Shown here: positions 1,363-39,712 of the stretch, piece after piece
How positions within the stretch are numbered: the stretch's first letter is position 1
Layout: every line of letters starts with the position of its first letter
Assembly (NCBI GenBank): GCA_023898365.1
Contig: CP060219.1
Location: 334,688 to 398,687 of the forward strand
Reading direction: 5' to 3'
DNA from: Candidatus Woesearchaeota archaeon
GTDB lineage: Archaea; Nanobdellota; Nanobdellia; Woesearchaeales; GCA-023898365
DNA length: 64,000 nucleotides
Program-made: the position numbers and the translations under genes
The notes under the pieces: model-generated
What the model was told of the DNA's origin: nothing
Databases searched by the model: none
Seen by the model: the letters and a program-made list of their open reading frames with translations, nothing else

Positions 1363-4131
1363 CTAAAACCCTTCTGGAGGAAAAACAATAAATCCCTCAC
1401 CTGATTGTGCTTGTGTAGGTAGCTTTTCATTGTGGATCATCGGTTTCTTTTTCTCCATCCCAAATCGCTCCATTTCTCTTTCCACATCTATTTCTATTGC
1501 TCTCAAATAACCTTCGCCCATATTCCAGTGCGGCATCGGATTACCAGGATTGCTATGCCGTTCCCACTCATAAAACGACGTTAAATATTCTTCACCACTG
1601 TACGGCAAAGTTTGCGGCAAACGCGAAGCAACAATATCACGCAAACGCCTCATAAACGGCGGCATGACTTCAGCTATGTCTACGACTGACCCATCGGGGC
1701 GCGTAATACCTTCGCGATCTTCCTCATAAAAATACGTCGGATCCTGAGCATTTTGTAACTTCGCAACCAAATCAGCAGGCAAAGGAGCCTTACGAACCTG
1801 ATGCGTATAAGCAAAACCATCAACTTCATGAGGTGTGCGAAGCAACACAAACTTTCTCACCCCATCCGCATCAACTTCTTTGAAAGTAAAATCAACTCCT
1901 TCATGCAAACGCGCTTGCGAAGCAACATAACGAACAAAATCCTGCGTGCTCTGCTGATCACGACTATGAGAGGCGTTCACTAACAGTCGGTTCACTCCCC
2001 GCCTATGTGCCAATTGAAGAAGGTTATGATAATTAAACTTATGCCATAGATAAGGTGTTCGATCACCTATAAAAGCCAAGGAGTGTGTTTGCAACGTAAT
2101 AAGTTCTGACTCGGGTCCACCAACAGTTCCATCAAGAACTAACACGCGCCCATGTCCTGCAGCGTAGCCTTCAAAGAGAATGTTCTTCACAGAAGAGCCA
2201 ACAAATTCATCTCCCTGATACAAATTAATATGAGGTAAATAAACACTAGGATCTAAACGAAAAACAAGTTGCGCAACACTTTCATCACAACCAGCACCTA
2301 AACAAGAAGCAGTCAAATCACAAACATCATCCAAAAAATCTTCATTTGTTTCAAAAACAATTCTATCAAATCTCTGTGAACCTTTCAATCGGTGTTTAAT
2401 TCTTGTTAAAAAATCAGCTGTGTGCGTTTCACCAAGTCTGTCTAACAAATTCGACTTGCCCCAACCTGCTTCCATTCGATAATATTTCGGAGGCGGAGGA
2501 TGTCGATAAGTTCTCACTCTGATTAATTCATCAATCGCAGAACACAATTCTTCATCAGATAATGATCTAACTGGATCAAGAGAACTCTCAACTTGCATTT
2601 GACGAAACAACGAACTCAGTACGGGGTTTGCAAATTCATCAAGTAAAGAAAATATTTTTGGTTTTGAAGTGATCAAGTAAGAACTCACCATGCTATCACC
2701 ATCTAACCAATCAGGTAACAACTCAGAGAAAATAACTCTTCCAAAGCGATCTTTATGCAACAAGTGACCTTTGGCAACGGCACGTTTCATATCTCTGTGT
2801 GCTAAACCACCATCATAAGCAGTTTTTTTTAATGGAAGAAGCATTTTTAACAAGAGTGCTTGCTGAGCAATAAATTGAATTGCAGTTTCACGAGCATCAA
2901 CAAGATCGGTTGCTATGCGACCAGCCAATGTTTCAGTAACCGAGCGAGCAAGGAGTTGCAGCTCTCTACTACCCCTTTCAGCATCACGATGTTTTGCAAC
3001 AACAGCGCCATAACCGCCCTCGGGAAGATCTTCTCGCAATAATTCAAATGCTCGTCGTTCATCAACAAGAGGATGACGTTGTAAGATTGGCGCAGTAAAG
3101 AGTTTCGTTAAATATTGTTGATGACGCAAAGCACGAACATCGCCAATCGTTGATCCTTCTGAAAATGCTTTCTTAACCAGCGATATATACAGTGAAGCTC
3201 TTTGATCATCAGAAAATGCTGGTAGAGCAAAATGAAACCAACGGTCTTGTTCTTCTTCACTTAACTCTTCAAATGACTTTCCTTTCAAAACACCAACTAA
3301 TTCGCCGAGAGCAATATAGATTTCGGGAATTTCCAGTAATCTTTCTCGTAAAAACAGCTTTGAAATAAGATTAGTAACTCGTTCACTCAGATCAGGTCTT
3401 GAAGCGGTTCTAGCATAGTTGTAAAAAAAGAAAAACAAAGGATGAGAACCATAATTTTCTTTAAGAAGCCGTAAACCCAATTGATAGGATAGGCGAGCAT
3501 CAGTTCTGTGTTTAGCACCAAAAAATTCTAAAGGTGCAAGCATCCCATAAGCACCAATGCCTTCTGGTCGCGAATTTTGAAAAATGAGTTTTTGATCAGC
3601 TTCTTGTTGTAAAACATCCCTTAGCGAACGATAGTATTCTGCATAAAGAAAATGATAAAACATTGATGTTGCTTCTGAAATAAATGAAGGTTTTTCATCT
3701 AAAATTGTTGCAATTGTTGAAAAATATCTGCCGGCAAGTCGCAAAACCTCGTGGTGATCATCCTCCATTGGGAGAAATCTTCCAAAAGAAAAAGGTTTAT
3801 TCTGATTCGTTGTGACAGCAACTAATGCAACATCTTCTTCGAAAGTTTTCATAACTTTCAAAAATTCAAGACCGAATGCCACATACTCTTGCAAACGAGA
3901 AGCACCTTTTAAAATTGCAAGTTCTTGATTGAAAAAAAAGAGTGTGCGTTCATTGTATTCATCAAATGAATCACCAATAATATCAATATCTCTAAAAGAA
4001 GGGTTTGCAAAGGATTCTATCTCAGCCAACGTTTGTTGCCAAAAATCCTCATCAGGATGCATTTTAGCAGTTCTTGCAAAGTTTGGCATTTCAAGCCGTT
4101 CAAAATCCGCAACGATTTGGTCAAGTGTCAT
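1363..4131 (-). CDS. Large hypothetical protein (922 aa), paralog P1 of the tandem array. It has a divergent helical N-terminal region and a conserved C-terminal domain with Cys and His motifs (approximately nt 1363-2390).
   Basis: Long ORF starting at ATG 4131 (MTLDQIVADFERL). The C-terminal ~340 aa share motifs with the next two genes: DDVCDLTASC, AQLVFRLDP, GSSVKNILFEG, LVLDGTVGG, NASHSRDQQSTQDFVRYVA, YLTSFYEWE and HWNMGEG. Confidence 0.85.
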   Translation of the reverse strand: MTLDQIVADFERLEMPNFARTAKMHPDEDFWQQTLAEIESFANPSFRDIDIIGDSFDEYNERTLFFFNQELAILKGASRLQEYVAFGLEFLKVMKTFEEDVALVAVTTNQNKPFSFGRFLPMEDDHHEVLRLAGRYFSTIATILDEKPSFISEATSMFYHFLYAEYYRSLRDVLQQEADQKLIFQNSRPEGIGAYGMLAPLEFFGAKHRTDARLSYQLGLRLLKENYGSHPLFFFFYNYARTASRPDLSERVTNLISKLFLRERLLEIPEIYIALGELVGVLKGKSFEELSEEEQDRWFHFALPAFSDDQRASLYISLVKKAFSEGSTIGDVRALRHQQYLTKLFTAPILQRHPLVDERRAFELLREDLPEGGYGAVVAKHRDAERGSRELQLLARSVTETLAGRIATDLVDARETAIQFIAQQALLLKMLLPLKKTAYDGGLAHRDMKRAVAKGHLLHKDRFGRVIFSELLPDWLDGDSMVSSYLITSKPKIFSLLDEFANPVLSSLFRQMQVESSLDPVRSLSDEELCSAIDELIRVRTYRHPPPPKYYRMEAGWGKSNLLDRLGETHTADFLTRIKHRLKGSQRFDRIVFETNEDFLDDVCDLTASCLGAGCDESVAQLVFRLDPSVYLPHINLYQGDEFVGSSVKNILFEGYAAGHGRVLVLDGTVGGPESELITLQTHSLAFIGDRTPYLWHKFNYHNLLQLAHRRGVNRLLVNASHSRDQQSTQDFVRYVASQARLHEGVDFTFKEVDADGVRKFVLLRTPHEVDGFAYTHQVRKAPLPADLVAKLQNAQDPTYFYEEDREGITRPDGSVVDIAEVMPPFMRRLRDIVASRLPQTLPYSGEEYLTSFYEWERHSNPGNPMPHWNMGEGYLRAIEIDVEREMERFGMEKKKPMIHNEKLPTQAQSGEGFIVFPPEGF

Positions 4132-4161
4132 GGTAATTTATTATTTTCAAAGCCAGCGTGA

Positions 4162-6285
4162 TTAGAATGGTAAGTCTTCACCATCATAATCACCTAATTC
4201 CGTTTTTAAACCCATTCTTCTCATTTCTTTCTGCACATCTATTTCAAGAGCGCAAATGGCCCCTCGTCCTTTTGTCCACTGGTGCTGACCGCCAATCACC
4301 TTCTCGTCTTGTTCACTTTCGTGTTGGAAAAAAGAGTCTAAATATAAAAGTCGATCAGAGTGTAGTTTTCCTTTCAGTTGAGGATACTTTTCTATCAAGT
4401 AAGATTTGTAGTCTTCAGGACCAATTACTTCAACATGGTGCGTATAGCGAGGCGCGTCTCCTGAAAAGCGCATACCTTGGACCAGTATTTGAGAGCCTTT
4501 TCTCTGAATTTTTAATTCTGTTGAACCATTTTCTAATTGTGAAGCAACATAACGAACAAATTCATGAGGGGAGTCTTGCCCTGGCGAATGATGTGTGTTT
4601 AGCAGGAGCGCGGAGTAACCTAAGCTGTGTGCTAATAATAGTAAGGCACGATAATTTTCCTTCATCCAAGTCTCTTTTGAAAACAACGTGTCTGCAGCTT
4701 TTCCTGCAATACAACCATCTAATAACAGTCCCTGTTTAACAGCAGATGCGTCATCTTCATCAAGTCGTCTGCTTGTTACTTCTGCAAGAATATTTTTAAC
4801 ACCTCCTCCAATTGAACCGCCAATAGTTATTAAATCAAGATGAAGTAAATGTGTGCGTGGATGTAAGAGATAGAGCAATTGTGCATGGGTATTTATACCA
4901 CCTTTGGAAAGACAAGAATCGGTCACATCACAAACACATCTAAGAGCATTAGTTTCAACTTTGAATTCTGTTTCCCTAACTCCTTGATAAGGCGTACCAT
5001 ACCTAGAAAAAGTTACTTGATGATAATAGTCTATTGTTCGTGAGAGCCAATCATCAATTGCTTCATAACCCCAAAAAGGACTCATATCTCTTTGTGAAGT
5101 TCTAAGTTGATCTTGGTGGTTTTTTCTTCTATTTGAAGGATTTTTTCGACGAACATCAAGCTCTCTTGCAACTGATCGCAATTGCGTAAAACGATCTTTT
5201 ACAAATATGTGAACATCTCGCATTACTCGAATTATTTTTGCTGGATGGGGTGCTGAGTCTTCCTGATTCGGCAATGAAGAAAAAATTTCAAGCTCGCCCT
5301 CCAAATCGCCCTCTTCATGAGTTTCAATGAATTTTTGTGGATCATCAAAAAATTGTTTCATTTCAGGGTGATCAGGTCTGTACAGCTGAGATAAAAAACC
5401 TAAAAGATTAGTTTCCTCGAGAAAATGTTGCAAAGAAGTCAAGTCTTTTCGTGAAAAAAGAAGCTGCACGTCATCAAGGTCTTCAGTTAAACAAGGTAGC
5501 ATAAATCTATGATGACCTCTGAGGAATGGCCAGAAACGATAAAGGTTTTCTTCAGAAAAAGAAAATTCTTTATCTAACAAACGTCTAGCATCGCGTGCAG
5601 TATCAAAGGGAACATCTTTAAAGTCATCCCAAGGCTCATCTAAAGAAGAAAAATGTTCCAACAACCCCTCTCTAAAAGGATTTCTTTCTCCAAGAAAAGC
5701 AAACTGTAAGCGTAAAGAATCATGATAATCACTGAGCATATCTGTTAGAAGTACAGGTAACTTCCGACCTGACTTCTTTTTAAGTGCCTTTCTTTGACGT
5801 TGCATGGAATAAATGTACAACAATTCACCTAAAAAAAACAAATAGTCGTTGAATATCTTTGCAGAATCATTCTCTGAAGTGGACAATTTTATCAGATGTT
5901 CTCTACCTGGTCGTAAGTTGATCCTTGGTGGAGGGCTTTCTTCATCAGAAAGATCATACGATCTATCCAAAAAAATTTCAAACAAAGCAGCTTCATCTAC
6001 AACATCATTTAATTGAGAGGGTGCTAGACGAGCACGAGGAGAAGAGGGATCTTGTGAGAGTAAAAGTATTCTGCTTAAATAGTTCTTTTGTTTTCCAAGA
6101 CGCTCGGCGTATAATTGTGAAGAACGAACACCATCGCTGTGCTGGTAAAGGTCTAACTTTTCAGGTTCACTAACTAATGATTCGAAGTGTGCAGTAGGAT
6201 TACTAGTGATCAGTCGGATTTCTTCTTCAATTTTCCTAATGGCGTCTTCGAGCTTCTCCCTTCGTTCGCGAATTTTTGAGGTCAT
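4162..6285 (-). CDS. Large hypothetical protein (~707 aa from ATG 6285; the track's 6297 start is a TTG), paralog P2. The conserved Cys/His domain lies at approximately nt 4162-4950.
   Basis: Motifs CDVTDSC, AQLLYLLHP, GGSIGGGVKNILAEV, LLLDGCIAG, NTHHSPGQDSPHEFVRYVASQ and a C-terminal ALEIDVQKEMRRMG shared with P1. The N-terminus MTSKIRERREKLE is identical to that of P3. Confidence 0.85.
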   Translation of the reverse strand: MTSKIRERREKLEDAIRKIEEEIRLITSNPTAHFESLVSEPEKLDLYQHSDGVRSSQLYAERLGKQKNYLSRILLLSQDPSSPRARLAPSQLNDVVDEAALFEIFLDRSYDLSDEESPPPRINLRPGREHLIKLSTSENDSAKIFNDYLFFLGELLYIYSMQRQRKALKKKSGRKLPVLLTDMLSDYHDSLRLQFAFLGERNPFREGLLEHFSSLDEPWDDFKDVPFDTARDARRLLDKEFSFSEENLYRFWPFLRGHHRFMLPCLTEDLDDVQLLFSRKDLTSLQHFLEETNLLGFLSQLYRPDHPEMKQFFDDPQKFIETHEEGDLEGELEIFSSLPNQEDSAPHPAKIIRVMRDVHIFVKDRFTQLRSVARELDVRRKNPSNRRKNHQDQLRTSQRDMSPFWGYEAIDDWLSRTIDYYHQVTFSRYGTPYQGVRETEFKVETNALRCVCDVTDSCLSKGGINTHAQLLYLLHPRTHLLHLDLITIGGSIGGGVKNILAEVTSRRLDEDDASAVKQGLLLDGCIAGKAADTLFSKETWMKENYRALLLLAHSLGYSALLLNTHHSPGQDSPHEFVRYVASQLENGSTELKIQRKGSQILVQGMRFSGDAPRYTHHVEVIGPEDYKSYLIEKYPQLKGKLHSDRLLYLDSFFQHESEQDEKVIGGQHQWTKGRGAICALEIDVQKEMRRMGLKTELGDYDGEDLPF

Positions 6286-6289
6286 TTCT

Positions 6290-8350
6290 TCAATCAATCA
6301 CCTCATCATTCGTTGCAGTTCCACCCCAATCAAGGTCTTTCAAAGACTCAGGGTCGGAATTCCAATTATCATAATAATTAGTTTCTTTTTGGGAAAGTTC
6401 AACAGGAGGACCTGGATCATCTTCTAAGTATTTAGAATACGTATCGCCCATTTCAAATCTACGTTTCGTTCTCTCAAATTTAATTCGTTTTTCTGTCAGA
6501 GAAGTAAAAACCATACCTGCAACAGTAACTTCCAACCCAGTCATTAAACCTTCGCCTTGATTCCAATGAGGCGTCGGATTTTTAGGATTGACGGTCTTTT
6601 CCCATTCATAAAAAGAGGTCAAGTATTGTCGCCCATCATATGGTGTTGCAGCATCACCAAACATTTTTTTGCTCTCGGCGTTAATCTGATCAATTACTTT
6701 AGTAAAATCTTGAGTGACTTTCTTTCTAACACGGTGTGTGTGAGTCAAACCTGTTGTTTCATCAGAATTTAAACCTCTAAACAATCTGAATTCTCGAACT
6801 CTTCCTTTTCGCTCAAAAGAATAATCCGATCCGTCTTGCAAACCAATCTGTTCAGCCACATAACGAACAAAATCATGTGTACTCTGCTGATCGCGACTAT
6901 GAGAGGTGTTAAATATAATTCTGGAGTAACCGTTTTTTTGCGCAAACAACACAAGCGATCTGAAATTAAGATCAAACCATTGTTCTCTAAATTCATTACC
7001 AGAATAATGAATCATGTCAGCTTCCAAACCTCCAACACAACCATCATGAACAAGAACTTTTCCAGAAGAATCTTCTCCTTCAAACACTATGTGCTTTAAA
7101 GAAGATCCTGCAAACAATCTATGATCAAAGAATGACTGGTGCAAGTATTGCCTTTCCATTTGATAGAGATTAACATGGAAAATATGTGTAGAAGGATCCA
7201 AACGATAGAGTAACTGGGCAACAGTTTCATTTCCCATACTTGAAAAACAAGAAGCGGTCAAATCACACACATCATCAAGAACATCAAGATTATGTTCAAA
7301 CCGCACTCCATTAAATTTTCTTGTAGCACCTAAAGATTTCTCCAATCTTAACAAATAATCATAAAAGACCACGACTTGATCATAGCGATCTTGAAATTGA
7401 GGATTCTGAGCATCATGCCGTTCTCCTTTTGAAGAAATACGACCTAATCTTTTTCCAACGTAAGCTCTTATGGTTTGAACAAGTTCTGCAACTTTTTTTG
7501 ATCGAAAATCATTAACATAATTTGTATGACCCACTTCCTTTACTGCTTTAACTAACTTAACTAGGGGCCACAGATATTGTTGTCGTGGCGAAAGAGGTTT
7601 AGCTGGCCAAGCATCTGCCAAAACCCTACAAGCATTCACTAAATCAACTAATTCTCTACCTGGAAAAGCAGGACTGGCAAACAAGTTAAAATCAGAATCG
7701 TCTTCTTTCAAATCATCTATAGAAAATACTTCTAATTGTCGAGGTTCCTCTGGATCCTCCTTGATAGGATCTTTAATGACAAACGACATGTTTACCTTAT
7801 CAAAAGATTTTTTTGCAAACACAACTTCAGCATAGTATTCAAATATCTTCTTCAATAACGTCCTACCTTGAAACAAGGGGCCAGATCTTGATTTCACAAG
7901 AGTGGCAAAAGGCCTCTCATCAATTTCCCCTACATCCTCAGAGAAAGCAATCTCTGCAGGAGTTCTAAAATTTACTAAATCTGCATCAGACCATTGAAAA
8001 ATTGGCAACAAAGGTTCATTCCAAAAATTTACCAATGGATACTTAAAAGAAGACTTGAACTCATGAAAAATCTTAGCAAGAGCTTGATAGTTTGGATCCT
8101 CACCAACCACACCAAATTGATCAGGTTTTGGTTCTTCAACATTCTCAAATTGATGAAGATTTTCTCTATCTAAAACTACTTCAAGCACAGGTTTCATATC
8201 AGCAACAGGATGTTCTCCAGGTTCTGCAGTTTCTGCTCGTTTTAAGAAAGCAATTTTCTCCCGTAAAAGAGAAGTATCGCGACCTTTAGCCCAATCACTA
8301 GCTAGAATCTCCTCAAGTTTCTCCCTTCGTTCGCGAATTTTTGAGGTCAT
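6290..8350 (-). CDS. Large hypothetical protein (686 aa), paralog P3. Its conserved Cys/His domain is internal (approximately nt 6520-7320) and is followed by an ~85-aa acidic tail.
   Basis: Motifs LDDVCDLTASC, AQLLYRLDP, GSSLKHIVFEG, LVHDGCVGG, NTSHSRDQQSTHDFVRYVAEQ, YLTSFYEWE and HWNQGEG. Its stop is 4 nt before the P2 ATG. Confidence 0.85.
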   Translation of the reverse strand: MTSKIRERREKLEEILASDWAKGRDTSLLREKIAFLKRAETAEPGEHPVADMKPVLEVVLDRENLHQFENVEEPKPDQFGVVGEDPNYQALAKIFHEFKSSFKYPLVNFWNEPLLPIFQWSDADLVNFRTPAEIAFSEDVGEIDERPFATLVKSRSGPLFQGRTLLKKIFEYYAEVVFAKKSFDKVNMSFVIKDPIKEDPEEPRQLEVFSIDDLKEDDSDFNLFASPAFPGRELVDLVNACRVLADAWPAKPLSPRQQYLWPLVKLVKAVKEVGHTNYVNDFRSKKVAELVQTIRAYVGKRLGRISSKGERHDAQNPQFQDRYDQVVVFYDYLLRLEKSLGATRKFNGVRFEHNLDVLDDVCDLTASCFSSMGNETVAQLLYRLDPSTHIFHVNLYQMERQYLHQSFFDHRLFAGSSLKHIVFEGEDSSGKVLVHDGCVGGLEADMIHYSGNEFREQWFDLNFRSLVLFAQKNGYSRIIFNTSHSRDQQSTHDFVRYVAEQIGLQDGSDYSFERKGRVREFRLFRGLNSDETTGLTHTHRVRKKVTQDFTKVIDQINAESKKMFGDAATPYDGRQYLTSFYEWEKTVNPKNPTPHWNQGEGLMTGLEVTVAGMVFTSLTEKRIKFERTKRRFEMGDTYSKYLEDDPGPPVELSQKETNYYDNWNSDPESLKDLDWGGTATNDEVID

Positions 8351-9025: not shown

Positions 9026-9421
9026 TTACTTCTTATTTACCCACAGTCCGTGTAAATTACAGTAGGCACGCACTTTGACATCGCTTGCATCTAAAACAAG
9101 AAACTCAGCTTTAGGCGCATCGCCTGGCGTTAACTTCTGCGTTAAGACTTGAGAACCTGCTAAGACCTGAATAAAGCCAATGTAATGATCTTCATCCATG
9201 GGATGAGGAATAGAGCCAACATTAACAATGACTTTGTTTCCTTCAATTTCCACAATGGGCACGTGCTTTTCTTTACCTTCATCTTTTAAGAAGATTTCAG
9301 GCAAATTTCTCCAGGATGCATCTGCAAGAGTTTCTCCATCAAATAATTCTACAACAACTTTACTTTCTTTATGTTGATATATGTCCATTGTTATTACCTC
9401 AAATTTTTCCAACCAAGTCAA
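9026..9421 (-). CDS. sor: Superoxide reductase (1Fe-SOR / neelaredoxin class, desulfoferrodoxin family)
   Basis: EKHVPIVEI, GSIPHPMDEDHYI and CNLHGLW motifs. The longest ORF overlaps ahpC by 23 nt; an alternative start MDIYQ at nt 9388 would give ~120 aa. Confidence 0.8.
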   Translation of the reverse strand: MTWLEKFEVITMDIYQHKESKVVVELFDGETLADASWRNLPEIFLKDEGKEKHVPIVEIEGNKVIVNVGSIPHPMDEDHYIGFIQVLAGSQVLTQKLTPGDAPKAEFLVLDASDVKVRAYCNLHGLWVNKK

Positions 9422-9959
9422 GTCCTGGTTTTAATGTCTTACCACCTGGCGTCCAGCTTGCAGGACAGACTTCGCCGCCATGAGCTGCAACGTATTGTGC
9501 TGCTTGCAATTTACGAACAAGTTCAGCTGCGCTTCGACCGATAGAATTATCATGTAGTTCGTAGGCCTTTAGTATGCCGTCAGGATCAATAATGAATGTT
9601 CCGCGAAGGCTCAAACCTTCTTCTTCAATCATCGTGCCATACGCTCTGCAAATCTTTCCTGTTGGGTCTGCAACCATGGGAAAGGTTATTTTCTTAATCG
9701 TGTCCGATTCATCATGCCATGCTTTGTGAACAAAGGCAGTGTCTGTTGAGACGCTTAGAACTTCAACATTCATTTTCTTAAGCGCTTCATAATGATCGGC
9801 CATTTCGCCAAGTTCCGTTGGACAGACAAAGGTGAAATCAGCAGGGTAGAAGAACAACACCGTCCACTTCCCAGCGTAATCTTTCAGATTGACTTTCTTT
9901 ATCTCGCCACCAACAAATGCGTCAGCAGAGAACTCTGGTGCTTTTTCATTTATTTTCAT
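9399..9959 (-). CDS. ahpC: Typical 2-Cys peroxiredoxin (AhpC/Tsa family)
   Basis: 186 aa with FFYPADFTFVCPTEL (peroxidatic Cys) and C-terminal GEVCPASW (resolving Cys). Confidence 0.9.
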   Translation of the reverse strand: MKINEKAPEFSADAFVGGEIKKVNLKDYAGKWTVLFFYPADFTFVCPTELGEMADHYEALKKMNVEVLSVSTDTAFVHKAWHDESDTIKKITFPMVADPTGKICRAYGTMIEEEGLSLRGTFIIDPDGILKAYELHDNSIGRSAAELVRKLQAAQYVAAHGGEVCPASWTPGGKTLKPGLDLVGKI

Positions 9960-10330
9960 TTTTTCATACCTCCTTTGGCGCCAACACGACAGATAATGTC
10001 GACATGTGTTGGCTCAATTCCTTTTTGTTTCAACGAGTCAAATAGGGTGCGCATGAGCGCGGAATCAAGTTCGTCAACAATAACGCCCTGCTCATCGATA
10101 ATATGAATGTGCGGCTCTACAATCGCATCAAAATGTAATTGATCATGAAGGGAAAACTGTGATAATTCGCCTTGCGCAACAAGCTTATGCAAATTGCGAT
10201 AGACGGTGGCGCGGGTAATCGTTGGGACTTCTTTGACAACTGCGAGAAACACTTCTTCTGCTGTTGGGTGCGAGGTAACAGACGCCACATAGGACAAGAT
10301 TTTTTGGTTTTGAATTGTTTGTCGTTCCAT
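9956..10330 (-). CDS. Fur-family metal/peroxide-responsive transcriptional regulator (PerR-like), the first gene of the oxidative-stress operon
   Basis: 124 aa with HPTAEEV, ITRATVYRNLHKL and the HxH site PHIHIIDEQG. It overlaps the ahpC start by 4 nt. Confidence 0.75.
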   Translation of the reverse strand: MERQTIQNQKILSYVASVTSHPTAEEVFLAVVKEVPTITRATVYRNLHKLVAQGELSQFSLHDQLHFDAIVEPHIHIIDEQGVIVDELDSALMRTLFDSLKQKGIEPTHVDIICRVGAKGGMKK

Positions 10331-10335
10331 CTTAT

Positions 10336-10347
10336 TAATAATTATTA
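10336..10347. promoter_or_regulatory. Candidate Fur/PerR-box operator: a perfect 12-bp AT palindrome TAATAATTATTA, 5 bp upstream of the perR-like ATG. A TATA-like element TTTTATATAG lies at 10367-10376 on the same promoter.
   Basis: Read directly from the sequence. It resembles the PerR/Fur box consensus TTATAATnATTATAA. Its position between the TATA box and the start codon suits autorepression. Confidence 0.35.
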
Positions 10348-10450
10348 TTATTTAGAAATCATTATTGTTTTATATAGTTTTCGCATTATTTCGCAGTTAT
10401 TAAAAAAACGAAACTAAGCAGCCCAAAAGATTTATATAACTGCCCTGCTT

Positions 10451-11623
10451 GTGTTACCATCGATAAGTATGTTACAACTGTTCAAGCCATTGGGAAAGAT
10501 GAATAAAGGCCATTTGCGGCTCATTGCAGAATATCTGCCACGAGAAGATGTGCAAGCAATCACCACACTTCTGAAAAAAAACCTGATTACAGTCACGTAC
10601 GAACAACTCAGAACAACAATCGTACGACCAAAAACCTATCCACAACTCCAAGCAAAACAATCAGACGGCAAACTTGAAAATAAACTTCGAAGCTACAACA
10701 CCTTCATAGAAGAGCGGTTCTATCAAAAAGTATTCAGAGAATTCTCAAGTGTCGCGTTTGAAAAAATAAATTACTTCTTCGAACGAACCGGATTTAAGAA
10801 AAAAGAAATAACAAACGCACTCATCCTGAGCTTGTTTGCGAAAAACCCAACGCACCTACTCCTTCTTGGCGATCCCGAACAAGGACAAAACGAACTACTC
10901 TCTTCAGTAAGCACCCTTTCACCAATTGGCGTAATTGCAGATCTTAAAGAAATTCCTGAATCGCACCTCTATATGAAAACGATCAACAAAAAACGAGAAC
11001 CTGGCTGCATTGCAGAAGCGCACGACGGCATTCTCATCCTCAAACATCTCCAATTCAAAAGCGATGCAGCAACTCACACGTTTGCAAAAGCATTAGATAC
11101 AGGAAAAACAACCTTCAAACGAGGTAAAGCAGAAGTGCACGTAACAAGCAATTTTTCGTGCATAGCCACCTCGTATCCAGATAGTTTTCATTTTGTTGGT
11201 AAACGCATCTCTTTCTTACATGGACAACTCATGTTCCCCCAAACCTTACTTCAAGACTTCTCACTTGTCTTCTTACTGCGAAGAAGTCCGCAACAAGAAT
11301 TCTTCAGAGAAAAAAATTTCTATTCCCTTAACATGCACACGCAAGACATTAATGATCCGGATATTGAATTTGTCAGAAAATACATTGAGTATGCACGAGA
11401 GCACACCATCGACTTTGCCCAGCTCTTAAAAGCAGAAGTAGCAGACTTTGTTGAAAGTCTTATGGGCAAAAAAGAATACTTTATAGAACCAAACAAAAAC
11501 ACTATCAAAGGCATCATTAACTTAGCAAAGGCACGAGCAGCACTTCATTTGCGCAAAGACGTCACCACAGACGATCTCGAATTTGTCTTCTCTATCGTTA
11601 AAGAAAGCGCGATTTCATTCTAA
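10451..11623 (+). CDS. Inactivated MCM-like AAA+ protein (MCM homolog with degenerate Walker A/B motifs and no canonical N-terminal domain)
   Basis: Positional equivalents of MCM motifs: HLLLLGDPEQGQNELL (Walker A lacking GK[ST]), AHDGILILKHLQF (Walker B lacking the DE), SCIATSYP (cf. AAANP), LQDFSLVFLL (cf. SRFDL arginine-finger region) and FVRKYIEYAREH (cf. the MCM LRKYIAYAR motif). Confidence 0.5.
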   Translation: MLPSISMLQLFKPLGKMNKGHLRLIAEYLPREDVQAITTLLKKNLITVTYEQLRTTIVRPKTYPQLQAKQSDGKLENKLRSYNTFIEERFYQKVFREFSSVAFEKINYFFERTGFKKKEITNALILSLFAKNPTHLLLLGDPEQGQNELLSSVSTLSPIGVIADLKEIPESHLYMKTINKKREPGCIAEAHDGILILKHLQFKSDAATHTFAKALDTGKTTFKRGKAEVHVTSNFSCIATSYPDSFHFVGKRISFLHGQLMFPQTLLQDFSLVFLLRRSPQQEFFREKNFYSLNMHTQDINDPDIEFVRKYIEYAREHTIDFAQLLKAEVADFVESLMGKKEYFIEPNKNTIKGIINLAKARAALHLRKDVTTDDLEFVFSIVKESAISF

Positions 11624-11686
11624 TCCGCCAATGATGACGTTATTCCCGGCTGAACACATGATGACAAGGAGTAACTGCTGAGGCGT
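11624..11686 (+). ncRNA. C/D-box sRNA (archaeal snoRNA-like 2'-O-methylation guide)
   Basis: C box AUGAUGA 11631-11637, a 12-nt guide, D' CUGA 11650-11653, C' UGAUGA 11659-11664, a 13-nt guide and D CUGA 11678-11681. The terminal stem pairs CCGCC (11625-11629) with GGCG (11682-11685). It is followed by a T7 run that acts as an archaeal terminator. Total length is ~62 nt. Confidence 0.6.
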
Positions 11687-11735
11687 TTTTTTATTATACC
11701 AACAAAAGAAAAAATAACTATTGAAAGTTCAGACG

Positions 11736-13505
11736 CTACTTCTTTCTGTATGAGCCGCCGCAATGATGCATTCCCGGATGCTTACGCGCATGAACGCGAT
11801 GGTTACATCGCTCACAGGTAAACTCTTTCTTGCGAAGCAAAAGCACCGCAAAGAAGATAACCAAACCTGCAACAACCGCAATGCCAACATAGACAATCAT
11901 ACCACTTTCAAGTTCAAGCACTAAGACTGCATGAAGCGATTTAATAAGTGCTTGTTTACGCACGCCATAATCTACACGAACATCTACTTCTTCATTATCT
12001 TCAATGTCAAGCGCGGAGAGCTTTGCGCGAACAATGAGTGCTTGTGATTGACGAGGTTCGAGAGCAGCAATCTTGCCACTCGTAAGCGTCATTTCTTCGC
12101 CGTCAACAATAACATCTGTAAGGGTGGCTTGCGCGTACGTTCGTTCAGTTCCTAAATTAGTGACATAAATTTTAAACGCAGAATTGATGCGATCATACGT
12201 CACACGATCAAGTAACAAATTAGAATCATCTTGAATGCTCACTTGAAGCACGTTTACTGCAGTTGCGACAAGAACATTTTCTAAACTCAAATAAAACGGA
12301 CCGTACGCAGTTGTTAAATCAGCAATGAGTGAGGAACTAGGAAATTCTTGATCATAAGTTATGGTCGCCACTCTTCCCGAATCAAGAAAGTGAGATTCGT
12401 TATCACCTAAAGCGAAGACCTCACTTCCTGCACGCACCGTAATGGTATTTCTAAAATACAAAGGCAAATCGCCAACGTTTTCAAGTGCAACCTCGAGTTG
12501 TTTCGTGTACGCATTATAGCGTATTTCTTGCAATTCAAGAAGTGGTCGAATAACAGGAAGTTGATAATAGTCAAGTTCACGCACCGTATTTCCTTGCGCG
12601 CCACTTGCCGTGCCAATTTCCAAGAAAACCCCCATAGAATGATTATGTTCATCACGAAGAACTTTCTTAATCTGCGCAGCAGGATTACTTAATTGATGGC
12701 CTACAACGACAACACTGCGAATATCATTATCAAGAAACACACGCTCAATCATTTCAGGATAAATATCTCTCCCAATAAAAAGCACCGGATATTCACCAAT
12801 AAAAAATTCTTCGCGCAAAAATTCGCCGTTCGTTGCATAGAGTTGTTTTTGTGGACTAATTGCTAAATACCTATTCAATATTTCTAGATTGTTCAAAAAC
12901 TTATCTCCCTTATCTATGACTTGGGCATCATAAGAAGAAAGCACGGATTTGACATCCCTATCGAAACTTCCGTAAAACAAAAGAGAGGACGCTAAAGAAA
13001 GATAGGGTGTTATGCGAGAAACAGATGTTTTATCTGCAAATAACACATAGCTGTCAGTGAGTGAAGCATACGAGGCAACACTTACTGAATCAAATGGAAA
13101 ACTTGGGTTGACAACAACATATGACGTGACTCCCTCAAGTTGCTCAGCAAGAAAAGTGTTCATATCGGTTGAGACAACCATTTCCTCAACATCAAAACCA
13201 GTATCAGAGAGAACAGTACGATAATGAGCATACACAGGATCGCGAGAGGTTAAGAGCAAAACGCGAACGGGATCACCAGCACCTGTTTCTCGAGGCAAGT
13301 GTTGGGGCAATTCAAGTGCTTGAAGAGAGTTAGTGAGAAAAAATGATTTTGCGCCAACTAATTCGGCGAAAAGAATCGAAGAATACACGTCAGTCCATTC
13401 TTGAGAATTAACGACAACAACATCAACACCAAGGTTTGTCGTTGCACCATAAGCAAAAGAAACCAATAACAACAATCCAATAAAGACAAGACTTGTTCGC
13501 ACCAT
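11736..13505 (-). CDS. Secreted, membrane-anchored hypothetical protein (589 aa). It has a signal peptide, a large extracellular region, a C-terminal TM helix and a short cytoplasmic zinc-ribbon-like tail.
   Basis: N-terminal signal peptide MVRTSLVFIGLLLLVSFAYGA and a C-terminal TM helix followed by CERCNHRVHARKHPGMHHCGGSYRKK (a CxxC...HHC motif). Confidence 0.6.
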   Translation of the reverse strand: MVRTSLVFIGLLLLVSFAYGATTNLGVDVVVVNSQEWTDVYSSILFAELVGAKSFFLTNSLQALELPQHLPRETGAGDPVRVLLLTSRDPVYAHYRTVLSDTGFDVEEMVVSTDMNTFLAEQLEGVTSYVVVNPSFPFDSVSVASYASLTDSYVLFADKTSVSRITPYLSLASSLLFYGSFDRDVKSVLSSYDAQVIDKGDKFLNNLEILNRYLAISPQKQLYATNGEFLREEFFIGEYPVLFIGRDIYPEMIERVFLDNDIRSVVVVGHQLSNPAAQIKKVLRDEHNHSMGVFLEIGTASGAQGNTVRELDYYQLPVIRPLLELQEIRYNAYTKQLEVALENVGDLPLYFRNTITVRAGSEVFALGDNESHFLDSGRVATITYDQEFPSSSLIADLTTAYGPFYLSLENVLVATAVNVLQVSIQDDSNLLLDRVTYDRINSAFKIYVTNLGTERTYAQATLTDVIVDGEEMTLTSGKIAALEPRQSQALIVRAKLSALDIEDNEEVDVRVDYGVRKQALIKSLHAVLVLELESGMIVYVGIAVVAGLVIFFAVLLLRKKEFTCERCNHRVHARKHPGMHHCGGSYRKK

Positions 13506-15997
13506 TATAACTCCCTTAATGCCCTCGAAATTTCTGCCTCTTCCTTGACAATATCATATTGCCGTGATTTAAGCAAGACAGCTTGTTTTTTTAAAGATTG
13601 TTGTTTTTTCTCATAAAGTGCAACTTTTTCTTGCAAATGAGCAAGTTCTTTTTGTTTAAGAACGGAATAGTTAGATTCGGAGTTTTTAACCAGCGTACGA
13701 ATTTCCTGAAGTTTTGCATCAAGCGAAGCAAGCAATTTTTCCTGTTTTGCAAGTTTACTCTGCACTTCCTGATGCGATTTTTCAAGTTGCGTTTCTCGTT
13801 CGCGAAGAGAAGTTCTCGTAGCATCAAGAGCAGTTTCCGCAGCAACTAACTTGTTTTCCTTTGCTTGCAATGAAGCAATACGATTATGAAGAGCGTCTTT
13901 CTTTCGTTCAAGAGATTTAATTTTTCCCGAAAGTCTTGCCACATCACTTTCGATATGATGAATTTGTTTTGGCAAGAGTTTCTTTTCTTTGCCGACATGT
14001 TGTTCCAGAAGTGCTTTTTCTTTGAGAATTTTTTCACGTTCATCAAGAAGTTCATGTTCTATCTTGACAAGGGAACTTGCTTCTTCATGATGTGCTTTCG
14101 ATTTCCGTACAAGAAGAATACGTTGTATTTTCAAAGAAATTCTATCTTCAAGATACGTGAACAAATCTTTTCGCCCGCCAACATAAGCAAATATGCCAAC
14201 AAGAAACAAAAGGAGGAAGAGAAAAATCAAATACGTTAATTTGAGAGGTGATTGCAGATTCTCTTGCGTTGTTATACTGGTGTTTGTTTGATTAATCGGT
14301 TGGACAGGAACAACAGGAAGGAGGGGAAGCACACCTAATTCTGAGCCTACAACAACCAAATCTTTTTGCACCGTATGCAAATCTCTTCCTCGCTCATACG
14401 AAAGTTTCGAAGAAAGAGAAAGAACAGAAGTTTCTGTCACTTCATCAGTTGGAAGCAATTCATAGACGTACAAAACCTTTTTTTCTTTTGGACCGAGTGT
14501 GACTGATGCATGCACAATTCCTTTTGAAAACAACGTATCAGGAAGCACTTCAGCGACAGAAACGTTTGAGAGAGCATAACTCAACGGGTTAGTGACCGAA
14601 ACAGAAACAAAATATTTTATGTTCCCATCTGTTTCTTTTGTAAGAAGTTCTTTTGAAATAATCGGCTCCACATAAGGAAGCACAGGGAACACCCCATCAA
14701 AAGAAATAGGCATAAAACTTCCAAACTCGGTGCGACAAGAACCATCAACGCGTAGTTCATGAGCACCATAAGAAATATTGTGAGCAAAGGAAAGAACGGT
14801 GTGAAAGATGCTTTGATCCTCATCCAAGTTTCTTGATCGCCAACGTGTCGAAAGATCAAACAACGTTGTCAGAAGTTCAAAATCACAATATTCTAAAGAA
14901 AAATATTCATTAGGATTGTCAACAATCAATGAAAAGTCATAGACGCCTCCTTCATGAAATGACGCATTCGCAAGAGTGGCATTGTTAATAAGAACAAGAA
15001 CGTGTAAGGGAACTGTTTCAAGAGAAACAGGCACTTCATACCATTGTTCATCTCCGTCAATAGTAATGTAGAGAAAAAATTTGGTTAAGAGAGGATCGAT
15101 CGGAACAACAGTGATCGTCTGCACCCAGGTCGAGCCATTCATAAAGGATTCATCATTGCGATAATACGAGTCTCCTTCTCGAAATTCTTCTGAAGAAGCA
15201 AGCAACCGAACCGATGAAGTAGGTATTTCAAAAGTTAAATCATGAGGCATCTCATCAGCAAAAGTAAACGTGACAACAAATGATTCGCCGTACGTTGTAG
15301 CAGGATCCACATCGATAGCAAGCACGGCAAAATGATGCTTTACTGTTAACGAATTTCTGTACGTGCCAGAAAAAAACTCATCATCATGTCGATACGTGTA
15401 GGTGCCAGTTAACGTATAGTCCCCGGTGGGCGCCGTTGGTCGCAGCGTCGCAAAACAATCATCACTGCGATCAGCAGCAATGGACGTTCGCAAATACAGG
15501 TGCGTTGCATTTTCTTCGCAAGAACCAGTTGAGACCACTGTCAATCCTTGAGGAATAGGTATGGAGAATAACAAATTCTTAACGCGACCGTCACCTTCAT
15601 TCATGATACTAATGTTAACTTCTACCGTATCATTCCAAAAAACAGTGCGAGAAACATTTACATCAACTTTTATGTCAGGAGTGGGATCGCGCAAATAAAC
15701 ACGAGCAGTGTCATTCGTTCGCGCCGTATAACAAAATTCAAAATCTTCACTGAGCACTTTACAATCATCAAGAAAGAAAATGAGAGGATCGGAGCGGTTC
15801 GTGCCATTGAGTGCTTCGTCAAGACGCAACGCAACTTTTGTTTGATTATGGGGCACTTGCAAAATGTACGTTTGATTACCAATCACCAACTCTTCGTTTG
15901 TTTCGTACGATGCGTTAAAGAGAACTTCAGCTGAAACAAATGGAAAAATCAACAAGAGACCTAACACCAACAAAAGGAGCGTATTCTTTTGCACCAT
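13505..15997 (-). CDS. Surface protein (830 aa) with a signal peptide, an N-glycosylation-sequon-rich ectodomain, a single TM helix and a long cytoplasmic Lys/Glu-rich coiled-coil tail
   Basis: N-terminal LLLLVLGLLLIFPFVSA, many NxS/T sequons, the TM helix LTYLIFLFLLLFLVGIFAYV, then ~230 aa of heptad-like K/E/L-rich sequence. It overlaps the upstream gene by 1 nt. Confidence 0.6.
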   Translation of the reverse strand: MVQKNTLLLLVLGLLLIFPFVSAEVLFNASYETNEELVIGNQTYILQVPHNQTKVALRLDEALNGTNRSDPLIFFLDDCKVLSEDFEFCYTARTNDTARVYLRDPTPDIKVDVNVSRTVFWNDTVEVNISIMNEGDGRVKNLLFSIPIPQGLTVVSTGSCEENATHLYLRTSIAADRSDDCFATLRPTAPTGDYTLTGTYTYRHDDEFFSGTYRNSLTVKHHFAVLAIDVDPATTYGESFVVTFTFADEMPHDLTFEIPTSSVRLLASSEEFREGDSYYRNDESFMNGSTWVQTITVVPIDPLLTKFFLYITIDGDEQWYEVPVSLETVPLHVLVLINNATLANASFHEGGVYDFSLIVDNPNEYFSLEYCDFELLTTLFDLSTRWRSRNLDEDQSIFHTVLSFAHNISYGAHELRVDGSCRTEFGSFMPISFDGVFPVLPYVEPIISKELLTKETDGNIKYFVSVSVTNPLSYALSNVSVAEVLPDTLFSKGIVHASVTLGPKEKKVLYVYELLPTDEVTETSVLSLSSKLSYERGRDLHTVQKDLVVVGSELGVLPLLPVVPVQPINQTNTSITTQENLQSPLKLTYLIFLFLLLFLVGIFAYVGGRKDLFTYLEDRISLKIQRILLVRKSKAHHEEASSLVKIEHELLDEREKILKEKALLEQHVGKEKKLLPKQIHHIESDVARLSGKIKSLERKKDALHNRIASLQAKENKLVAAETALDATRTSLRERETQLEKSHQEVQSKLAKQEKLLASLDAKLQEIRTLVKNSESNYSVLKQKELAHLQEKVALYEKKQQSLKKQAVLLKSRQYDIVKEEAEISRALREL

Positions 15998-19304: not shown

Positions 19305-19641
19305 GTAAGTAAGCGCCAGAGCTAGCTTCGGATCATTCGTGATCTGCGGAAAGTCCACCCACTCATTACCGACCGCTTGTCGCAAGGCAAGAAGGGGAGA
19401 CTCTTGGCAACACAGACAAGAGAAAAAACCACCTGTTTTTTGGGATGATACGCAAAAGAACCGCCTTGGTAACAGACGGGAGTTAACTCGTTGACGACAA
19501 AACAGGAAAGGATGAGAACTGTGCCCTGGTTGAGTGCAAGTCTTTTTGACGCTTAGTCTACTGCTAGCAAGGTCATCGCAAAGAAAAGTACTTCTTTGTT
19601 TGGGCCAATAACAGAAGGTGGCTTATCTGGCGCATACTTAC
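19305..19641 (+). ncRNA. rnpB: RNase P RNA (rnpB), ~337 nt
   Basis: CR-I-like GGAAAGUCCACC at ~19341-19352 and CR-V-like ACAGAAGGUGGCUUAUC at 19611-19627. The P4 strands CCACC/GGUGG are complementary and covary relative to the CCGGG/CCCGG consensus. A 16-bp P1/P2 terminal pairing links 5' GUAAGUAAGCGCCAGA (19305-19320) with 3' UCUGGCGCAUACUUAC (19626-19641). The locus is GC-rich relative to its surroundings and has no ORF. Confidence 0.65.
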
Positions 19642-33357: not shown

Positions 33358-34344
33358 ATGTCAGAAAAACAGCAGCGTAGGGCAGCAAAAGTTCCTTTAC
33401 GAGAACTAAACACGTTTCGTGCAGTTTTTGCAAAAGATATTGATAAAAGTTGCCGTCATGAAAAACAAAAAGATTACATGCTTATCGCTCTGCATAGCAA
33501 ACACGATGTTAAAGGCTACGACATTATTGAATACGACTTTAGCAAAAAAGAACCAAGAGATTTTCGCTCAGCTATCACTAAAGTGCTGCCAACCTATAAC
33601 AAATTTGCATTTGATCAACTCGGCTCGATTGCCATCATCGAAGTTGACGAAGAATTTCGTGACAAAGAAGAACTCATCGCAAAGACCCTTCTTGAAACCA
33701 ATGCGACGGTGAAAACTGTTCTGCGCAAAGATTCGACACATGAAAATGAGTTTCGCACACAAACCTACAAGTTTTTGCAAGGCGTCGAAACAAAAATTGC
33801 GACGATCAAAGAAAATAATGTGACCCTTTCATTCGATGTTGAAGAAGTATATTTTTCTGTTCGTCTATCTTCAGAGCGAAAACGTGTTGCACAACAAGTC
33901 AAAGAAAATGAATCAGTGCTTGTTATGTTTAGCGGAGCAGGACCATACGCAATGGTGATAAAAAAAATGCATCCGTCTGCAACAGTGACTGCAGTTGAAA
34001 TGAATCCTGAAGGACACCGGTGGGCAGTGCACAACGCTAAAATAAATAAACTAGATATTACCTGTGTTAATGAAGATGTGGGCAAGCTCGCACTGGGAAA
34101 AACGTTTGACCGCATTGTCATGCCCGCTCCAAAAAACGCAGAAGATTTCTTAGAAAAAGCAAAAGAACACGCAACACAAGGAACCATTATTCATTTGTAC
34201 TGCTTTGGAGAAGAAAATGAATTAGCAGAAAAAAAGAAAAGAATAGAACACGTCTTTTCAAAAGTCACGTTTCTTGGAGACACGGTGTGCGGCCAACAAT
34301 CACCCCGCATCTATCGCTATTGTGTTGATTTTCGCGTCGATTGA
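33358..34344 (+). CDS. trm5: tRNA (guanine37-N1)-methyltransferase Trm5 / Taw2-like class I methyltransferase
   Basis: Motifs VLVMFSGAGPYAMV (cf. Trm5 MFAGVGPFA) and VTAVEMNPEG, with a Met-10-like fold arrangement. Confidence 0.75.
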   Translation: MSEKQQRRAAKVPLRELNTFRAVFAKDIDKSCRHEKQKDYMLIALHSKHDVKGYDIIEYDFSKKEPRDFRSAITKVLPTYNKFAFDQLGSIAIIEVDEEFRDKEELIAKTLLETNATVKTVLRKDSTHENEFRTQTYKFLQGVETKIATIKENNVTLSFDVEEVYFSVRLSSERKRVAQQVKENESVLVMFSGAGPYAMVIKKMHPSATVTAVEMNPEGHRWAVHNAKINKLDITCVNEDVGKLALGKTFDRIVMPAPKNAEDFLEKAKEHATQGTIIHLYCFGEENELAEKKKRIEHVFSKVTFLGDTVCGQQSPRIYRYCVDFRVD

Positions 34345-35948: not shown

Positions 35949-36093
35949 GCAGACAACAGAAAACAGAAAAAAAAAACATGAGCCCGGGGGGATATAGGAA
36001 CGCCAACAACAATTTGGCGTTTGTGAGCCTGCATACGCTAACACGTAGCAGACAACAGAAAACAGAAAAAAAAAAACATGAGCCCGGGGGGAT
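35949..36093. repeat. Two direct copies (35949-35993 and 36048-36093, 45 and 46 nt) of the tRNA-Ile 3'-terminal 15 nt plus its 30-nt poly-T trailer, separated by 54 nt. This is an att-like tandem duplication of a tRNA 3' end.
   Basis: The string gcagacaacagaaaacagaaaaaaaaa(a)catgagcccggggggat occurs twice. The second copy is continuous with the intact tRNA-Ile. Confidence 0.8.
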
Positions 36094-36152
36094 TTGAACC
36101 CCCGACCACACGATTATCAGTCGTGCACTCCACCAGACTAAGCTACGGGCTC
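36079..36152 (-). tRNA. tRNA-Ile (anticodon GAT)
   Basis: Folded manually. Acceptor GAGCCCG/CGGGCUC, anticodon stem CACGA/UCGUG with loop CUGAUAA, T-arm GGGGG-UUCAAAU-CCCCC and discriminator A. CCA is not encoded. Confidence 0.85.
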
Positions 36153-36162
36153 GAATAAAAAA

Positions 36163-36237
36163 TGGCGCCTCCGACCAGGATCGAACTGGTGACCTTGCGG
36201 TTAACAGCCGCACGCTCCACCGCTAAGCTACGGAGGC
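36163..36237 (-). tRNA. tRNA-Asn (anticodon GTT), with 3' CCA encoded
   Basis: Acceptor GCCUCCG/CGGAGGC, anticodon stem UGCGG/CCGCA with loop CUGUUAA, T-arm ACCAG-UUCGAUC-CUGGU, discriminator G then CCA. It lies 10 nt upstream of tRNA-Ile. Confidence 0.85.
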
Positions 36238-36302
36238 ATGGCTTAGAGGGATTAAAACCCATTTATAATGTTTATTGTTTATAAAAGGGAAGATAAATAA
36301 AA

Positions 36303-37061
36303 TCAAGTATCAGTAGTTTCCAACAATCCAAGCATTTGCACAACTTGTTCCAATGAAACAACATTACGTGGATCCACCCCGTGTACCTGTTCATACCACA
36401 ATGAAGCAACATTGCTTCTTGGAGATTGTATGACTAATTCTCTAATTGCATGGATCCTTCCTGAAGATTTCCTCGCAGTCATTGCAGAAACTGCCGTTTC
36501 AAAACAATACTCGTTGTAACCACCTCCAAAAAAAAGCTCATTATCTTTGAAAAGATATAGTTCTTCAGGGTGAAGAGGTAAACCAGAATCATATCTTGTA
36601 AAAATCACTTGATCAATCAAACCAACTTCAACTAGAATACTTGTTGCTGCAGCATAATGATGAGGGGTTTCTAGTGCAACAACTCCAAAAGGTGATCGAT
36701 TAGATCGTAAGCTGAGAAAAGCTAAGAGTGCATCCAGATATGCTTCCGCTTCGCGTCGAATTTCATCAGTCTCAATATAATGCATGTGACTAAGATGTAA
36801 ATAAAAAGGATGTACAAGCATCACCATTTGGTCTCCTTCTTGAGGCTTTTGATGATCTCTTGCGTGTTCTTGACAGGCGATCAGCAATTTTTTAAAATCT
36901 CCTCTTTGATAACAGTCATCATCCTTAGATTCTCGATTTCTCAAGTTAACTTCGATATGGGAAGTCCAACCCGTGAAATTACGATTCAAAACGGCCGAGC
37001 TAGCATTATTTGTTGCAGGTAAAGCAGTTCTTAAGTTGGGATCGTAAAAATTTGACATCAA
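36303..37061 (-). CDS. Hypothetical protein (252 aa) located between tRNA-Asn and tRNA-Thr
   Basis: Uninterrupted ORF. His-rich segment HPFYLHLSHMHYIETDE. No family recognised. Confidence 0.45.
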   Translation of the reverse strand: MMSNFYDPNLRTALPATNNASSAVLNRNFTGWTSHIEVNLRNRESKDDDCYQRGDFKKLLIACQEHARDHQKPQEGDQMVMLVHPFYLHLSHMHYIETDEIRREAEAYLDALLAFLSLRSNRSPFGVVALETPHHYAAATSILVEVGLIDQVIFTRYDSGLPLHPEELYLFKDNELFFGGGYNEYCFETAVSAMTARKSSGRIHAIRELVIQSPRSNVASLWYEQVHGVDPRNVVSLEQVVQMLGLLETTDT

Positions 37062-39711: not shown

Positions 39712-39712
39712 T

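Follow-up and report, generated by a model that had tools for sequence, protein, structure and literature searches.

Archaea and eukaryotes share MCM as their core replicative helicase, whose N-terminal OB/Zn tier is deemed integral to how the ring forms, is loaded and handles DNA. Canonical archaeal MCMs such as SsoMCM (3F9V, 6MII) and the MCM of M. acidophilum (8Q67) carry helical, Zn and OB subdomains and a winged helix. The MCM2 protein of Methanopyrus kandleri (3F8T) keeps N-terminal A, B and C subdomains (PMC4619765). Divergent extra copies of MCM in archaea often stem from integrated elements (Krupovic et al. 2010, cited in PMC3914693). These "shell" MCMs are additional to the core MCM and are full-length helicases in mobile contexts. 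Here, a gene is described from a 64,000-nucleotide stretch of a Candidatus Woesearchaeota (DPANN) genome (contig CP060219.1, positions 334,688 to 398,687; the whole stretch analysed is referred to as the window). Its product is very probably a dead member of a short-MCM family of Woesearchaeota and Nanoarchaeia. The initial annotation had called it an inactivated MCM-like AAA+ homolog, and this core interpretation is supported by Pfam, phmmer, a structural model with Foldseek searches, and motif alignments. The gene and the parts of its product are as follows (residue ranges refer to the 384-residue product).

10469 to 11623, plus strand: coding sequence of the inactivated short MCM-like AAA+ protein, 384 aa followed by a TAA stop.
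10469 to 10753, plus strand: family-specific N-terminal module (aa 1-95), with three short helices, a beta-hairpin and a long helix.
10754 to 11338, plus strand: MCM-type AAA+ alpha/beta core (about aa 96-290).
10868 to 10891, plus strand: degenerate Walker A, GDPEQGQN (aa 134-141), versus GDPGTGK[ST] (G to E, T to Q, K to Q, S/T to N).
10982 to 11005, plus strand: helix-2-insert region, INKKREPG, which here and throughout the short family lacks 6 residues relative to canonical MCM.
11030 to 11053, plus strand: degenerate Walker B, ILILKHLQ (aa 188-195), versus hhhhDE (DE to KH).
11111 to 11143, plus strand: equivalent of the pre-sensor-1 beta-hairpin, TFKRGKAEVHV (aa 215-225), placed by alignments.
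11162 to 11182, plus strand: degenerate sensor 1, IATSYPD (aa 232-238), versus AAANP (N to Y).
11246 to 11272, plus strand: degenerate arginine-finger segment, LLQDFSLVF (aa 260-268), in which LLSRFDL or SRF(D/H)L has become LLQDFSL (R to D).
11354 to 11608, plus strand: MCM AAA-lid domain (about aa 296-380; PF17855 and model helices), with FVRKYIEYAR at 11369-11398 and LAKARAAL at 11522-11545.
11486 to 11506, plus strand: degenerate sensor 2, EPNKNTI (aa 340-346; PR to KN, R to N).

Sequence and structure searches agree on where this protein belongs. The Pfam model for MCM (PF00493) scores 34.2 bits and passes its gathering score of 23.3 (E 1.9e-8). MCM_lid (PF17855) stays just below its own (24.5 bits versus 27.4, E 3.7e-5), and the region is structurally aligned within the MCM matches. 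The MCM domain model of NCBIfam matches with E 1.9e-12. The whole-protein MCM model NF040949 does not reach its cut-off (46.3 bits versus 940), and active members of the short family also fall short of it at 145-153 bits. In a phmmer search against PDB sequences, residues 326-588 of SsoMCM (3f9v) were matched to residues 132-384 of the protein (390-aa numbering) with E 5.7e-13, covering the AAA+ core and the lid, and some 30 further MCM chains followed. A model computed with AlphaFold2 from 17 family sequences is confident (predicted local distance difference test, pLDDT, 86.8; predicted template modelling score, pTM, 0.87). When this model was compared with the PDB by Foldseek, the best 50 matches were all MCM subunits.

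Placement among other AAA+ clades was weighed as well. Pfam, NCBIfam, phmmer and Foldseek all place the protein with MCM and with no other AAA+ clade. MoxR/RavA and the Mg-chelatase subunit BchI belong to the same AAA+ pre-sensor-2-insert superclade, and their families give weak matches (Pfam Mg_chelatase, only E 8e-4; BchD in NCBIfam, E 3e-6), neither Mg_chelatase nor AAA_3 reaching its gathering score in Pfam; with MCM as the best structural neighbours, this placement was rejected. Orc1/Cdc6 and Lon were rejected too, neither sequence nor structure being closest to those clades. The window also holds a genuine MoxR-clade AAA+ gene, in a MoxR (AAA_3), DUF58 and VWA/BatA operon at 37841-40699 on the minus strand, which offers an internal contrast to the MCM-like gene.

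The initial annotation had read two things from the protein: that the positional skeleton of MCM is retained and that all catalytic residues are substituted. Both are borne out by the alignments. The Walker A and B positions, the AAANP-like segment, the SRFDL region and the LRKYIxYAR motif (here FVRKYIEYAR) are all found, with no GK[ST], no DE and no Arg finger. The six catalytic positions read Q, K, H, Y, D and N, and the GLGSG segment is lost too. The spacing of these positions equals the family medians without any indel (K-D 52, D-N 44, N-R 27, R-sensor 2 81 and a tail of 40 residues, versus 52, 44, 27, 81 and about 41 in the family). The D-N spacing, which reflects the length of the pre-sensor-1 hairpin, is the same in canonical and short MCMs. 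The distance from Walker A to Walker B is 52 in the short family versus 58 in canonical MCMs, a 6-residue alignment gap that corresponds to the longer helix-2 insert of the canonical proteins. At the tip of the pre-sensor-1 hairpin, the basic R218 occupies the position of SsoMCM K430 and of an invariant K of active family members. Positions of the fold core common to all family members are also kept (N67, H119, D125, G177, A223, P227, Q243, F254, A345, A347 and D359 in 374-aa numbering). The Arg finger and sensor 2 of MCM work in trans on the adjacent subunit (PMC4619765). Because these residues and the cis residues are both lost, both faces of any shared ATP site would be disabled. Judged from its sequence, the protein is predicted to be fully inactivated, in cis (Walker A, Walker B, sensor 1) and in trans (Arg finger, sensor 2).

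A residual use of nucleotide has to be considered at this point. Nucleotide binding persists in some AAA+ and P-loop proteins whose motifs deviate, and the GDP...G backbone pattern of the P-loop is kept here. The protein could thus still bind nucleotide through non-canonical residues and serve as a switch or a weak ATPase. We regard this as very improbable. Substitutions have hit Walker A (Lys and Ser/Thr), Walker B (both acids), sensor 1, the Arg finger and sensor 2 together, the P-loop now holding a Glu and Walker B a Lys-His pair, and the same coordinated loss is seen in 30 family clusters.

Outside the AAA+ core and lid, the protein departs from canonical MCMs. The stretch before Walker A is only 140 residues long (canonical MCMs have a median of 334) and that after sensor 2 only 40 (median of 127), and the model stops with the lid. 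The MCM N-terminal OB/Zn domain (PF14551, PF17207) and the C-terminal winged-helix domain are not present in the protein. The initial annotation had suggested looking for an N-terminal OB/zinc domain in a predicted structure; the model has none and shows a module of about 95 aa instead. This module contains no cysteines, no OB barrel and no Zn motif, and it is modelled on its own with a pLDDT of 90.5. No significant fold match to it was found. Since the OB/Zn domain and the winged helix are absent and the protein has its own, confidently modelled N-terminal module, the gene is not a decayed copy of a normal MCM. M. kandleri MCM2 differs as well: none of its N-terminal subdomains occurs in the protein, the sequence match is only E 0.3, and the protein belongs to another family, specific to Woesearchaeota.

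The short family itself was recovered with HMMER from 1.84 billion representative proteins (clusters at 50% identity). About 80 clusters of proteins of 350-430 aa match from end to end, through the N-terminal module too, with E values from 1e-137 to about 1e-30. Canonical MCMs (640-710 aa) rank below them and match through the AAA+ part only. Against the family profile, the window protein scores E 1.4e-100 and is colinear over its full length, including the module with its conserved PL, N77, F89 and F92. All family members whose source is named come from Candidatus Woesearchaeota or Nanoarchaeia. In a scan of GTDB species representatives with an alignment of the active type, the best 80 loci fell in 80 different assemblies and were 43-58% identical over the full length; drawn in this way, these loci (L001-L080) do not represent the degenerate members. 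Many third-party annotation (TPA) records with a gene and synteny of the Woesearchaeota type (L003, L006, L008, L009 and others) are titled "uncultured Methanosarcinales archaeon", a taxonomic label that is probably wrong and a labelling artefact.

Neither NCBIfam nor Pfam has a curated model for the family, and both see the MCM domain only. NCBI names its members "hypothetical", "ATP-binding protein" or "AAA domain-containing protein", and JGI annotates one active member (P0002) as "DNA replicative helicase MCM subunit Mcm2". In the literature searched, no account was found of short or truncated MCMs from Woesearchaeota or other DPANN archaea. The family is uncurated, restricted to Woesearchaeota and Nanoarchaeia, and of a new domain architecture. 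How it stands to a canonical MCM in the same genomes was approached in three ways. The best 120 matches of a search with a canonical-MCM alignment were all from Methanobacteriales, Archaeoglobi and Thermoplasmata, which is uninformative on a canonical MCM of Woesearchaeota. In cluster look-ups, the canonical MCMs nearest to the short family were from Altiarchaeum or Thermoplasmata or were unnamed proteins. No MCM N-terminal domain was detected in the window and 1.16 Mb of family loci, where about 1.4 would be expected by chance, so that this result is uninformative.

Both active and dead forms are found in the family. The active type carries the signature GDPGTGKT, IDELN, ATANP, SRFHL and SPR. 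Among 63 cluster representatives, 27 keep all six catalytic residues, 6 have lost some and 30 keep three or fewer. Clustering at 50% identity over-represents fast-evolving lineages, and therefore the active type probably predominates at the species level. Active members such as MBD3354716.1 (P0156), MBN1544940.1 (P0159) and P0002 are colinear with the window protein over the full length, with identical spacing and 24-31% identity. They keep the motifs and often lie beside arvABC/oapABC and HerA genes, whereas the window protein has neither the motifs nor the synteny. In the degenerate members, all elements of the ATP site, including GLGSG, are lost in a coordinated manner, and the fold-core positions and N-terminal invariants are kept. 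A crude neighbour-joining (NJ) tree separates the short family from canonical MCMs as a monophyletic group, in which P0083 is the partner of the window protein. Degenerate members sit on long branches and are mostly grouped, a grouping that long-branch attraction could produce.

The dead forms are kept by purifying selection. For the degenerate pair P0164 and P0062, the proportions of nonsynonymous and synonymous differences (pN and pS) are 0.13 and 0.65, with dN/dS of about 0.10; for P0165 and P0067 they are 0.08 and 0.73, with dN/dS of about 0.03. The ratios of both pairs are approximate because dS is near saturation, and the constraint is clear. These values bear on whether the window gene is a decaying relic, left without function after loss of the ATPase and not yet hit by stops or frameshifts. 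Several observations fit such a relic: the six catalytic residues and GLGSG are gone, the protein lies on a long branch in the NJ tree, it is a singleton without conserved synteny, and it keeps 35 of the 81 positions conserved in active members. Yet an open reading frame (ORF) of 384 codons is intact in a genome of 40% GC, motif spacing is exact, the AlphaFold2 model is confident, the fold-core positions of the whole family are kept and a TATA-like element is present. With other, equally degenerate members under strong purifying selection, decay of the window gene is considered unlikely.

Inactivated MCMs had been linked to mobile elements in the initial annotation, a link that does not apply here. 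No integrase, transposase or viral genes were found in the window, its GC content is uniform and the nearest tRNA is 25 kb from the gene. A "shell" copy introduced by a virus, plasmid or integrative element would be in line with the frequent origin of extra archaeal MCMs from integrated elements (PMC3914693), with a neighbourhood that is not conserved, and with the match to a viral MCM-type helicase family in PHROG (phrog_10371, E 1e-14). However, PADLOC returned no match for the protein, and a scan of IMG/VR gave only three distant matches at 23-27% identity, through the AAA+ part alone. GenBank archaeal viruses and plasmids yielded only ordinary full-length MCM helicases (22-31% identity), with matches that start past the N-terminal module. 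No members of the short family were found in the virus and plasmid collections searched, and in at least 80 Woesearchaeota genomes the genes of the family sit in a chromosomal setting of housekeeping genes. In this the family differs from the "shell" MCMs, likewise divergent homologues. A mobile-element origin was rejected on these grounds and appears highly unlikely.

The extent of the gene was also revised. The initial annotation gave an ORF at 10451-11623 (plus strand). This ORF is present, and its product is identical to NCBI USN45837.1 (H6502_01750), on a 1,131,583-bp contig of Candidatus Woesearchaeota; its start is placed differently here. Three start calls exist: GTG 10451 in the initial annotation (390 aa), ATG 10469 (384 aa) and ATG 10499 in the NCBI model (374 aa). 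The N-terminus of the family aligns from ATG 10469, with LFKPLGK in the window protein matching a conserved L-x-P-L/I motif. The 384-aa product is exactly that of an independent gene call from raw-read assemblies. Together with a TATA-like element, this alignment and this call make GTG 10451 an improbable start, and the NCBI model is probably 10 aa too short. The element lies about 31 nt upstream of ATG 10469 and is a candidate archaeal promoter of the MCM-like gene, a function suggested by its sequence.

10431 to 10438, plus strand: TATA-box-like element TTTATATA, read from the sequence.

A scan for sigma-70 promoters and intrinsic terminators gave counts at chance level and is not meaningful for an archaeon.

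The window gene stands alone between two opposite-strand gene sets. Downstream and convergent are genes for large, probably surface proteins. Upstream, across an intergenic region of 138 bp, lie divergent genes for a Fur-family regulator, a peroxiredoxin, a desulfoferrodoxin-like superoxide reductase (SOR) and a Bcp peroxiredoxin. The stress operon reported in the initial annotation is thus indeed adjacent to the gene, on the opposite strand and transcribed divergently. At 10330-10356, directly next to the start of the Fur-family gene, an AT-rich imperfect palindrome, TCTTATTAATAAT/ATTATTATTTAGA, is similar to a Fur/PerR operator; it is probably an autoregulatory site of the oxidative-stress operon. 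The divergent pairing with a Fur-family regulator and three antioxidant genes, and the palindrome between them, could be taken to mean that the MCM-like gene is an oxidative-stress recruit, co-regulated with the Fur/PerR-peroxiredoxin-SOR operon through the shared intergenic region. But the palindrome adjoins the Fur gene, the TATA-like element of the MCM-like gene follows about 75 nt downstream of it, and the arrangement occurs in none of 86 relatives' loci. Divergent adjacency is weak evidence in a compact 1.1-Mb genome, and recruitment of this kind seems quite improbable.

The genomic contexts of relatives differ from that of the window gene. In about 25 of the 80 loci, the active-type gene is directly followed by genes for a small GTPase (arvA/oapA-like), OapB (PF09846) and OapC (PF09845), which form the oapABC/arvABC operon.

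L002, L005, L010 (e.g. 9300-10650), L015, L017 and about 20 others: oapABC/arvABC just 3' of the short-MCM gene.

This operon was named for its adjacency to a Haloferax replication origin and was later shown to drive the formation of extracellular vesicles (PMC10927574). Genes for HerA and an Mre11-like phosphoesterase are found 5' of active short-MCM genes, and one recurrent arrangement includes genes resembling the RFC large subunit and SSB. The P0002 gene is near Orc1/Cdc6-like and DNA ligase genes. In two degenerate lineages, the gene directly follows a string of rpS15, RecJ/Cdc45(GAN) and rpS3Ae (L084, 4031-7694; L081, 9415-11092). A MazE/PemK toxin-antitoxin pair follows the degenerate gene in L081-L083. 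The rpS3Ae gene is also found 3-4 kb 5' of some active-type genes, and its presence near both forms therefore hints at positional orthology between them.

What the inactivated protein does can be proposed from its motifs and scaffold. Without any ATP site, it would neither hydrolyse ATP nor complete the ATP site of a neighbour, which would make an ATP-independent structural role the most likely one. Tentatively, and with something less than even confidence, it may be a pseudo-ATPase that serves DNA replication or repair as a structural or adaptor subunit. In such a role, the AAA+/lid scaffold would be reused, nucleic acid could be contacted via the basic pre-sensor-1 hairpin (K217-R218-G-K220) and partners could be bound via the N-terminal module. 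A broader proposal is more speculative still, and we hold it as doubtful: the short family might be a lineage-wide, undescribed second MCM-derived protein, in which the N-terminal tier and winged helix were swapped for the 95-aa module and which serves, linked to origins or repair, often (the window protein included) as a selectively maintained pseudo-ATPase, an accessory subunit of the replisome or of repair. In the extreme version of this proposal, some reduced genomes would rely on the short form in place of canonical MCM.

Several observations weigh against the proposed role of the window protein as a structural or adaptor subunit. The window protein is a singleton at 50% identity whose sole cluster mate is identical, so that the dN/dS evidence comes from other members. 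Its neighbourhood has nothing in common with the 80 family loci, and the window contains no replication genes; no oap, herA, recJ or S3Ae genes were found in it either. The arvABC operon has been tied by experiment to vesicle formation and not to replication (PMC10927574). Contexts of the relatives are chromosomal and enriched in DNA metabolism, yet tRNA synthetases and further housekeeping genes are interspersed there. Because of this mixture, the context links are suggestive only.

Directly 3' of the TAA stop (11621-11623) lies a C/D-box sRNA, made up of the following parts.

11625 to 11685, plus strand: C/D-box sRNA.
11625 to 11629, plus strand: 5' stem, CCGCC.
11631 to 11637, plus strand: C box, ATGATGA, followed by a 12-nt guide.
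11650 to 11653, plus strand: D' box, CTGA.
11658 to 11664, plus strand: C' box, ATGATGA, 4 nt after D' and followed by a 13-nt guide.
11678 to 11681, plus strand: D box, CTGA.
11682 to 11685, plus strand: 3' stem, GGCG.
11686 to 11692, plus strand: run of seven T, a likely archaeal transcription stop for the gene and the sRNA, as suggested by its sequence.

The initial annotation had the sRNA sharing the 3' region of the gene. The sRNA is real and canonical in form; it does not overlap the coding sequence, as it starts at 11625, after the TAA. Twenty C/D families of Rfam match at the same coordinates. The best of them, sR1, scores 34.7 bits (E 4.2e-7) and does not reach its gathering score of 45, as is expected because guides are lineage-specific. 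The terminal stem is present in the minimum free energy fold, and the fold energy equals that of shuffled sequences (z 0.01), which is normal for C/D sRNAs. Because no TATA-like element was seen directly upstream of the sRNA, co-transcription with the MCM-like gene followed by processing would be the simplest reading, and the sRNA is probably transcribed from the TATA promoter of the gene. In 1.16 Mb of family loci, a strict box regular expression found no C/D-box sRNA beside relatives and only the window copy is seen. The sRNA was rejected on this basis as a conserved partner of the short-MCM family.

Other features of the window can be described briefly. An archaeal RNase P RNA (113.5 bits) is found at 19309-19637 on the plus strand, and three tRNAs are found at 36079-37378 on the minus strand; no rRNA was found in the window. 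The remaining genes include ordinary housekeeping genes. A 528-aa Hel308/Ski2-like helicase at 34317-35903 (minus strand) appears to comprise the C-terminal half only (Helicase_C at residues 61-158, archaeal helicase domain 4 and HHH). It has no RecA1/DEAD domain and lies 176 bp from the tRNA-Ile at 36079; the gene may be truncated or split. Several very large ORFs, the longest of 3812 aa and with at most minimal matches in Pfam (DUF11, Big_9), occupy 52549-63987, 42137-45841, 1363-8350 and 11736-15997, all on the minus strand. Surface or adhesion proteins, of a kind typical of DPANN genomes, are their probable products.

A phylum-conserved family of MCM proteins without an OB/Zn tier would be a natural experiment on what the AAA+ tier of MCM does alone. 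With its new N-terminal module and its active and dead forms, the latter kept by selection, the family could bring to light an accessory factor of replication or repair in DPANN archaea that has so far gone unrecognised. Surveys based on COG or Pfam that score "Mcm present" in DPANN may count these short, sometimes inactive proteins.

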